From an uncultured Nitrospinota bacterium (GTDB taxonomy: Bacteria > Nitrospinota > Nitrospinia > Nitrospinales > JAJDAT01): DNA of 64,000 nucleotides. Every line of letters starts with the position of its first letter. The stretch's first letter is position 1. Below are positions 23,701-25,411 of this stretch, one piece after another. The translations under genes were made by a program, and so were the position numbers. The stretch lies in assembly GCA_964570665.1 (NCBI GenBank), contig CAZMZH010000003.1:244701-308700 (forward strand), read 5' to 3'. The notes under the pieces are model-generated. The model saw only the letters and a program-made list of their open reading frames with translations. It did not search any database and was not told where the DNA came from.

Positions 23701-24438
23701 TTAATAGCGAATCTCTCCTCCGTATATTTTTCGAGTTTCCCCACCCATATCCAATGGGTGATCGTATCCAGGTAAAATAGTCCCGTCTGCCGAGTAAGGA
23801 CCTATTTTACTCCATGTTCCATAGGGCGGTTCCTTAACGTACTCAATTTCTAAAATGGCCTTAGGGTTTTTGTAGCCGTACTTAAAGGGCATTATCACTC
23901 GAAGCGGAAATCCATGTCCATCGGATAAAGGTTTGTCGTTCATTGCGTACACCAGGAGAGATCGCGGTTGTAAAAGATCCTCTCGGAGAGCGGCTTCTAT
24001 GTAATCGTCCGCACAATGAAAAACGATTCCTTTTGCTTCGGGTAAAGGCTCTGCCAAATGGTCTAGCTCTGAAAAATGAAATCCCGCCCATTCCGCTTTA
24101 GCGGACCAACATTCCACGCATTTGAGTCGCGATGTTTGCGATTTTTTAGGAAAAGTTTTGAGTTGGATTAAAGTAAACGTTTGAGGATTTTTGCACAATC
24201 CGTGAACTCGTAAAGTCCATTTTTCTCCATCCACTCTTAAAAATGGTTTCCAATAGTTAACGTAAAACTTTTGGAATGGGTTTGTCCGCGTTTTCCCAAT
24301 ATAAGGCGTTCCTGTATAAAAGTCTTTGTCAGCCCCTTTAGCTGGGGAGCGGAACCCAAAAATTCCCAAAAAAACCGTAAAGATTTCTATAAACCAGACT
24401 AAAAAAGTTCTGCGTGAAAATTTTATTATCGCGCGCAT
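23701..24438 (-). CDS. Tat-exported molybdopterin oxidoreductase, sulfite-oxidase family (MsrP/YedY-like)
   Basis: 245 aa. Twin-arginine signal FSRRTFLVW. Mo-ligand cysteine context RLKCVECWSAKAEWAGF. GFPLRVIMPFKYGYKNPKAI is typical of the YedY family. Confidence 0.8.
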   Translation of the reverse strand: MRAIIKFSRRTFLVWFIEIFTVFLGIFGFRSPAKGADKDFYTGTPYIGKTRTNPFQKFYVNYWKPFLRVDGEKWTLRVHGLCKNPQTFTLIQLKTFPKKSQTSRLKCVECWSAKAEWAGFHFSELDHLAEPLPEAKGIVFHCADDYIEAALREDLLQPRSLLVYAMNDKPLSDGHGFPLRVIMPFKYGYKNPKAILEIEYVKEPPYGTWSKIGPYSADGTILPGYDHPLDMGGETRKIYGGEIRY

Positions 24439-25025
24439 CGAAACCCCAAAAAAATAAATCGTCGCTCTGGAGAGGCCAAAGCAATATCAAATGTCTTGCT
24501 ATATTCGTACTCCAAATGAAAATTCCACAACCCACCGCGAATTATTTTTTTGTTATCGCGGTTTGTGGTCGTCCATTCCCAAACAGAACTCGCCATATCC
24601 CGAACGCCAAAGTAAGAAACATCTTTTTTATTAAGTCCAACTTTTCGTTTAATGATACCCGAATGAAAAGGATGCGCTTTCTTTTTTAATTTCTTGTTTC
24701 CCCAGGGATAAACGCGGTCGTCTAACCCACGCGCTGCCTTTTCCCATTCATTTGAACTTGGCAATCGTTTATTTTGCGCCATACAATAGTCGTTTGCTTC
24801 TTTCCAAGTAATCTGTGAAACGGGGTGAGCGTTGGCGTTTGGAGGGAAAGGGTGATTTGGAGCCCAGTTTGTGAATTCTTGGTTTGTAATCTCAAAACGA
24901 TCAATAAAAAAGCTTTTTAATTCGATCGTCTCAAGGTTTTCGGTGTCTCCCATTTTAAAAGGACCTGCTGGAACCCTGATCATTTCAGATGCTTGAGCAG
25001 TTCGCAAATCACCGCATCCAATCAA
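24426..25025 (-). CDS. FGE/SUMF1-domain protein, probable lipoprotein (start codon uncertain)
   Basis: 199 aa from TTG 25025. ITWKEANDYCMAQNKRLPSSNEWEKAARG, IIRGGLW, LGFRCAR. The frame stays open upstream to 25082 and encodes ...KPILLTFAVLIGC, a lipobox, with no ATG/GTG/TTG. The stop overlaps the downstream start by 13 nt. Confidence 0.8.
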   Translation of the reverse strand: MIGCGDLRTAQASEMIRVPAGPFKMGDTENLETIELKSFFIDRFEITNQEFTNWAPNHPFPPNANAHPVSQITWKEANDYCMAQNKRLPSSNEWEKAARGLDDRVYPWGNKKLKKKAHPFHSGIIKRKVGLNKKDVSYFGVRDMASSVWEWTTTNRDNKKIIRGGLWNFHLEYEYSKTFDIALASPERRFIFLGFRCAR

Positions 25026-25411
25026 AACCGCGAATGTAAGGAGTATAGGTTTTAAATTTCGAAAAACGTTCTTCTTACGCTCCTATGTGCTCATTAGTTT
25101 ATATGAGGAAGTCGATTAAAGGTCCTAAAGCTTACATATGTAGAGATAATAAGACTTATTATAAGGGGTTGATGGCGTCTTTGAACAGAATCGCCAGAAA
25201 AATTTCCGGTAAAGCTAAAAGATTGTCCTTGATGGCTTCATAAGAAAATATATGGTGGTGTGATAATAATTTCCTAGCCCTCTTGCGTTCCTGTCTTTGC
25301 TAGGATATTGTGTAAGGTTTGAAATCGTTAAATTGACATAAAAAGCGGTCAGAGAACACTTTCTTTGGAGCGCTTGCTTTGAATAGACCGAACAACTTAT
25401 AGGAATCGTAA

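Follow-up and report, generated by a model that had tools for sequence, protein, structure and literature searches.

The 64,000-nucleotide stretch of Nitrospinota DNA analysed here (the window) carries two overlapping genes which, on balance, probably encode a co-translated periplasmic molybdoenzyme of two subunits, confined to Nitrospinota and Nitrospirota, in which an FGE-fold protein would act as a non-catalytic binding subunit. Both genes lie on the minus strand, the FGE-like gene upstream (ORF 24426..25025, or 24426..25082 from stop to stop; Pfam PF03781, FGE-sulfatase) and the Mo gene downstream (23701..24438; PF00174, Oxidored_molyb), the latter encoding a 245-aa short YedY/MsrP-like molybdopterin enzyme of the SUOX fold. 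The initial annotation had claimed that the stop codon of the first gene and the start codon of the second share 13 nt, and this was found exactly so: within ATGCGCGCGATAA (24426..24438, minus strand, read from the sequence) the FGE stop TAA occupies 24428..24426 and the Mo start ATG occupies 24438..24436. This ATG falls within the CGATGC that codes for Arg-Cys in the invariant GFRC motif of the FGE-like partner. The co-translation proposed from this junction was likewise borne out, as the overlap recurs in related loci and not just in the window genome, marking a real translationally coupled unit. Upstream of the pair, a consensus scan located a sigma-70-like promoter candidate (TTCAAA-16-TATAAT, 25158..25185, minus strand, 10 of 12 matches), which is weak evidence as such sites were no commoner there than in shuffled sequence, and no Rfam match of note to a Moco riboswitch or other RNA element was obtained in this region.

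The pair is strictly conserved and translationally coupled, has been co-duplicated into two pairs, and has no conserved third gene. A scan of GTDB species-representative genomes yielded 200 relatives, and 80 loci were taken for analysis. In group 1, which comprises the related loci in Nitrospinota and Nitrospirota (Manganitrophus included), a local HMM scan identified an FGE-like ORF immediately upstream and on the same strand in 67 of 67 non-redundant loci with upstream sequence. The junction overlaps by 4–22 nt in 56 of these (−13 or −22 nt in 45 loci, −19 nt in one, and ATGA, i.e. −4 nt, in ten), while the stop-to-stop ORFs overlap in five further loci, the genes are separated by spacers of 7–60 nt in three, and three are interrupted, two by an IS200-like transposase. 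An overlapping pair that recurs in every informative related locus is far more than chance would produce, and the adjacency, which might have been peculiar to this genome, is thus kept across two phyla; we therefore consider that it probably represents a periplasmic redox enzyme of two subunits, as yet undescribed, which dispenses with the usual MsrQ partner. The pairing had been put forward as one not known to be described, and our searches of the full-text literature similarly found no account of an FGE-like/Mo pair. A second, paralogous pair (group 2) has the reversed order, Mo gene first and FGE-like gene second, with a 4-nt overlap; it shares genomes with the first pair (L030 and L079; L032 and L078) and is also found in cultured Nitrospina watsonii (OX336137.1). 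Complete genomes with the pair include OZ245011.1, OZ242182.1, OX336137.1 and CP114561.1. Natural FGE-Mo fusions were absent from three homologue lists, and the ten longest relatives in an exhaustive profile search carried Mo-co dimerisation, HEAT or duplicated Mo domains and no FGE fusion. Pairing outside the two phyla was rejected, since neither Anaerolineae relatives nor the more remote short YedY-like proteins are encoded beside an FGE gene. Related short YedY-like proteins of Chloroflexi-type genomes function without an FGE partner, indicating that the fold does not intrinsically require one. The Mo proteins on 'Robiginitomaculum' and 'Crocinitomicaceae' MAG contigs have N-termini identical or near-identical to those of Nitrospinaceae, and these contigs therefore look mis-binned.

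The Mo protein is nearest to YedY/MsrP, yet it falls far under the MsrP family threshold and is truncated. It scores 109 bits against PF00174 (cutoff 24), among solved structures E. coli YedY is the closest to it in sequence (1xdq, E=1.8e-20), and Foldseek returned YedY (1xdq/1xdy) as the best matches of its AF2 model (pLDDT 81.7). As in YedY, the SUOX-fold Mo-molybdopterin domain is combined with a Tat signal peptide, here residues 1–36 (MRAIIKFSRRTFLVW...AKGA, with a predicted cleavage before the following D; 24331..24438, minus strand), in which SRRxFL can be read directly as part of F-S-R-R-T-F-L-V. The twin arginines (24414..24409, minus strand) are kept in 15 of 15 aligned homologues (alignment A2) and are found in virtually all related loci. 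In the alignment to E. coli YedY (RMRCVEAWS), the Cys of KCVECWS falls on the Mo-ligand Cys, so that the CVECWS motif (24103..24120, minus strand) contains the Mo-ligand Cys107 in the RxxCVExWS context together with a second Cys, Cys110, forming a CxxC; both are invariant in alignments A2 and A4, and the YedY-like FY, CVE and GTW motifs are retained. The earlier claims of Tat export and of a sulfite-oxidase-family cysteine are therefore upheld. Cys110 has no counterpart in MsrP/YedY and is specific to this family, the position often being Gly in the wider short-YedY family. Furthermore, while the designation 'MsrP/YedY-like' is justified by fold, Cys context and Tat signal, plain 'MsrP' is not: the protein reaches 94.6 bits against the NCBIfam MsrP model (NF003767) versus a cutoff of 207, split over two stretches, and is approximately 90 residues shorter than E. 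coli MsrP/YedY (245 versus 334 aa), lacking a loop of approximately 22 aa and approximately 40 C-terminal residues. Given the low MsrP score and the roughly 60 missing residues, its substrate may be quite different from that of MsrP.

The Oxidored_molyb domain belongs to the SUOX family, and the SorAB/SoxCD structures 2blf and 2xts are among the fold matches of the Mo protein. These systems, which form complexes, also comprise a Tat-exported periplasmic SUOX-fold Mo subunit with a small second subunit encoded alongside; however, their partner is an electron-carrying c-type cytochrome, whereas the partner here has no recognisable redox cofactor, and their Mo subunit, which oxidises sulfite or sulfane, has a dimerisation domain, which Pfam did not detect in the Mo protein (PF03404). 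That the latter is a plain sulfite dehydrogenase or sulfite:acceptor oxidoreductase is very improbable. N. gracilis has been described as encoding a periplasmic SOR (PMC3578206), an annotation that may or may not refer to the present Mo-protein family. Against NCBIfam models, the Mo protein scored 42 bits for SoxC (cutoff 420), 34 for SorA (cutoff 600) and 33 for SorT (cutoff 570), on which grounds this identity was rejected; moreover, the motif at its Mo Cys is of the YedY type, CVE(C/A)WS, and not the CAGNRR that characterises sulfite oxidases, and it has neither the dimerisation domain nor a cytochrome partner. PruR, a periplasmic pterin-binding signalling protein, resembles the Mo protein in being a small periplasmic SUOX-fold protein without MsrQ, and represents a weaker fold match (7kos, 7kom). 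Unlike PruR, which is reported to have neither the Mo-ligand Cys nor Tat export, the present family has an invariant Mo-ligand Cys and Tat motif, which argues for a real cofactor-containing enzyme.

The FGE-like protein scores 114.7 bits against PF03781 (cutoff 23.3), and its mature FGE-sulfatase-fold domain of 187 aa (SEMIRVPAGPF...GFRCAR, 24429..24989, minus strand) lacks the catalytic Cys pair. Its AF2 model (pLDDT 88.8) best matches the folds of CalU17, FGE and pFGE, with TM(query) values of 0.79–0.86 against FGE structures in Foldseek, and its best profile matches are pFGE (1y4j) and FGE. The initial annotation had pointed to the copper-dependent oxidase activity of FGE enzymes and to the Cys pair as a means of assessing it. 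In the HMMER alignment to 2afy (and in alignments A1 and A3), the stretch that corresponds to the active site is degenerate (W-N-F-H-L-E-Y-E, 24504..24524, minus strand): Cys336 of human FGE is replaced by F (variably F, L or H in the family) and Cys341 by Glu, while His337 aligns to an invariant His of the partner family. Devoid of the Cu-binding Cys pair, the partner is non-catalytic in the FGE sense, and the idea of an FGE-type oxidase was abandoned. The clients of FGE are sulfatases with a C/S-x-P-x-R motif; neighbour clustering revealed no sulfatase gene among the conserved neighbours. Counted along the 25070..24429 translation, C96 and C212 are the only invariant cysteines of the family, and we take them to be the structural disulfide pair of the FGE fold. 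The invariance of this putative disulfide, together with the Sec signals of most members, favours a periplasmic location for the partner. Such an extracytoplasmic, Cys-less FGE-sulfatase fold is reminiscent of pFGE/SUMF2 and of relatives such as Tsi3 and PvdO; however, the partner is much smaller, has conserved loops of its own (KKxHPFxSGIxKRxVGxNKxD and WNxHL(D/E)YEY) and is obligately paired with a Mo gene. In both single-chain AF2 models the lowest confidence falls in the most conserved family-specific loops, as would be expected of surfaces that depend on a cofactor or a partner. The T6SS immunity protein Tsi3 is an example of a Cys-less FGE fold that works purely by partner binding (bioRxiv 10.1101/2021.05.21.445229).

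The invariant His and the acidic residues of the degenerate active-site stretch could instead belong to a new metal site (conserved His133, His185 and Glu189 in place of Cys/Cys) in a catalytic FGE-fold protein, with the two proteins acting as separate enzymes of one periplasmic pathway, the FGE-fold protein oxidising or binding a small molecule and the Mo enzyme reducing the resulting product or by-product. Cys-less FGE-fold enzymes that act on small molecules are indeed among the best fold matches (PvdO, ToxD, CalU17 and the EgtB/OvsA domains). We nevertheless regard this arrangement as unlikely, since the cofactor-binding motif is putative, the surroundings of the pair contain no further conserved pathway genes, and the small partner is without the extra domains of EgtB-type enzymes.

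The tight co-expression, and the family-specific second Cys beside the Mo-ligand Cys, may also be read as pointing to a partner that is not a stable subunit but a periplasmic factor that matures or assembles the Mo enzyme, for instance by modifying or protecting the CxxC at the Mo site once the enzyme has been exported. Peptides that contain Cys are known targets of FGE-fold proteins, and NirV, listed among the uncharacterised FGE-family members linked to nitrite reduction, is encoded downstream of the copper nitrite reductase NirK and has been proposed to play a maturation/assembly-type role. The nirK-nirV arrangement resembles the present one in the genetic linkage of a gene of the FGE family to a redox metalloenzyme of the periplasm, although of another class (Cu in NirK, Mo here), and the likeness is one of linkage. 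A maturation role seems improbable to us, as the partner is missing the FGE catalytic Cys pair and as overlap-type coupling in both gene orders suggests that it is produced in stoichiometric rather than catalytic amounts. Additionally, Moco insertion is cytoplasmic and precedes Tat export, while the partner is Sec-exported in most lineages.

In the window the pair is flanked by small Rieske-like ORFs, which lie on the opposite strand, and by a gene for a pentapeptide-repeat protein. Neighbour clustering over 81 loci identified the two genes themselves as the only conserved ones (75 and 63 loci), followed by guaA (23), a Pyr_redox gene (19) and guaB (18), and the flanks differ completely between lineages. 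The idea that a cytochrome, chaperone or other third component is conserved with the pair was accordingly rejected: beyond the two genes, clustering produced nothing but synteny within lineages (guaB-guaA, an aldolase/SDR gene, the Pyr_redox gene) and no conserved cytochrome neighbour. Flavoprotein disulfide reductase genes recur beside the pair, and in Nitrospina an FGE-like domain is fused to a CcdA/DsbD membrane domain, adjoining a TlpA-like thioredoxin. In the characterised MsrPQ system, the gene for MsrP is accompanied by that for the haem-b/FMN membrane protein MsrQ, which reduces MsrP. The Mo gene here is instead paired with an FGE-fold gene, and the reported absence of an adjacent msrQ was confirmed not only by the flanking genes but also by Pfam analysis of the plausible multi-TM ORFs of the whole window, which belong to other families and include no Ferric_reduct domain, and by tblastn with E. 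coli MsrQ over the window and 87 loci (best E=0.19), a search of limited sensitivity for divergent MsrQ. A further proposal, to which we assign a rather slim chance, is that the FGE-fold protein functionally replaces MsrQ in a new heterodimeric SUOX-fold class, with the lectin-like subunit either presenting oxidised periplasmic proteins or peptides to the Mo site or coupling the Mo subunit to a relay of thiol-based reductants. The thiol-relay version is hinted at by the CxxC that includes the Mo-ligand Cys, the CcdA/DsbD-fused FGE-like domain and the recurring disulfide reductases. If true, it would constitute a periplasmic system for repair or detoxification that depends on Mo and draws on thiol chemistry instead of haem b, and the new class would belong to nitrite- and manganese-oxidising lineages.

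In the two-subunit enzyme that we favour, the catalytic subunit would be the short YedY/MsrP-type Mo-molybdopterin protein, loaded with its cofactor in the cytoplasm and exported in folded form via Tat, while the small FGE-fold (C-type-lectin-like) partner would be exported separately via Sec and most likely form a 1:1 periplasmic complex with the Mo subunit, serving in substrate recognition, capping or docking. By analogy to YedY/MsrP, the chemistry may be an oxygen-atom-transfer reduction of an S- or N-oxide, with methionine sulfoxide in proteins or peptides, or else a small molecule, as candidate substrates, and the electron donor would be something other than MsrQ. Most nitrite oxidation in the sea, and much of that on land, is the work of Nitrospinota and Nitrospirota, whose periplasm contains the key enzyme NXR and encounters reactive species of nitrogen, oxygen and chlorine. 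A Mo module that is lineage-specific, duplicated and strictly conserved, and that has no canonical donor subunit, points to periplasmic redox chemistry that has not yet been described, possibly in repair, detoxification or small-molecule conversion. For Mo enzymology, such a complex would add a partner of the FGE/C-type-lectin fold, with no obvious cofactor, to the sulfite-oxidase fold, and the FGE superfamily would gain another non-catalytic, partner-binding role. The occurrence of the second pair in a cultured species, N. watsonii, opens the system to direct testing.

The mature domain of the partner is preceded by 31 signal-peptide-like codons (ERKKNVFRNLKPILLTFAVLIGCGDLRTAQA, 24990..25082, minus strand), with an LIGC motif and, downstream of its Cys, a conserved SPase-I site that would be cleaved between AQA and SEM. 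Directly 5' of these codons, within an SD-like TAGGAG, lies an in-frame TAG (25083..25085, minus strand), so that the sequence upstream of the partner ORF reads MST, the stop at 25085..25083 and then ERKKNVFRNLKPILLTFAVLIGC; no ATG, GTG or TTG occurs between this TAG and the TTG at 25025. The in-frame TAG, with no canonical start before the hydrophobic core, is present in four of five genomes of the window's clade, while one relative (L007) has TGG at the position of the TAG. Reassignment of the stop codon was rejected because TAG acts as an ordinary stop, terminating 8 of 43 genes in the window. A signal peptide without a canonical start renders export and periplasmic assembly uncertain in the window genome, and the partner gene might here be decaying, the TAG having removed its start and signal and the Mo enzyme functioning alone; alternatively, a signal-less partner translated from an internal ATG could hitch-hike via Tat on the Mo subunit. 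Gene callers do begin relatives at the Met of SEMI (187-aa products P0123 and P0124), and Tat hitch-hiking has been proposed for NxrB in the same organisms (PMC3578206). We consider either scenario quite unlikely, as decay is difficult to reconcile with the strong purifying selection on the mature domain (pN/pS 0.14–0.19) and with the 31 signal codons, which over five related genomes retain their frame, hydrophobic core and AxA site (pN/pS 0.35–0.88), arguing that the region is translated. The initial annotation had also called the partner a lipoprotein; a lipobox-like VLIGC is literally present (25028..25014, minus strand) at the very beginning of the callable ORF, but the designation is doubtful, since the Cys is shared by only three of the five closest genomes and is absent from every other aligned homologue, the majority of homologues carry plain Sec/SPase-I signal peptides, and the signal codons here lack a canonical start. 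The group-2 partner carries a lipobox-like L[FS][ST]C.

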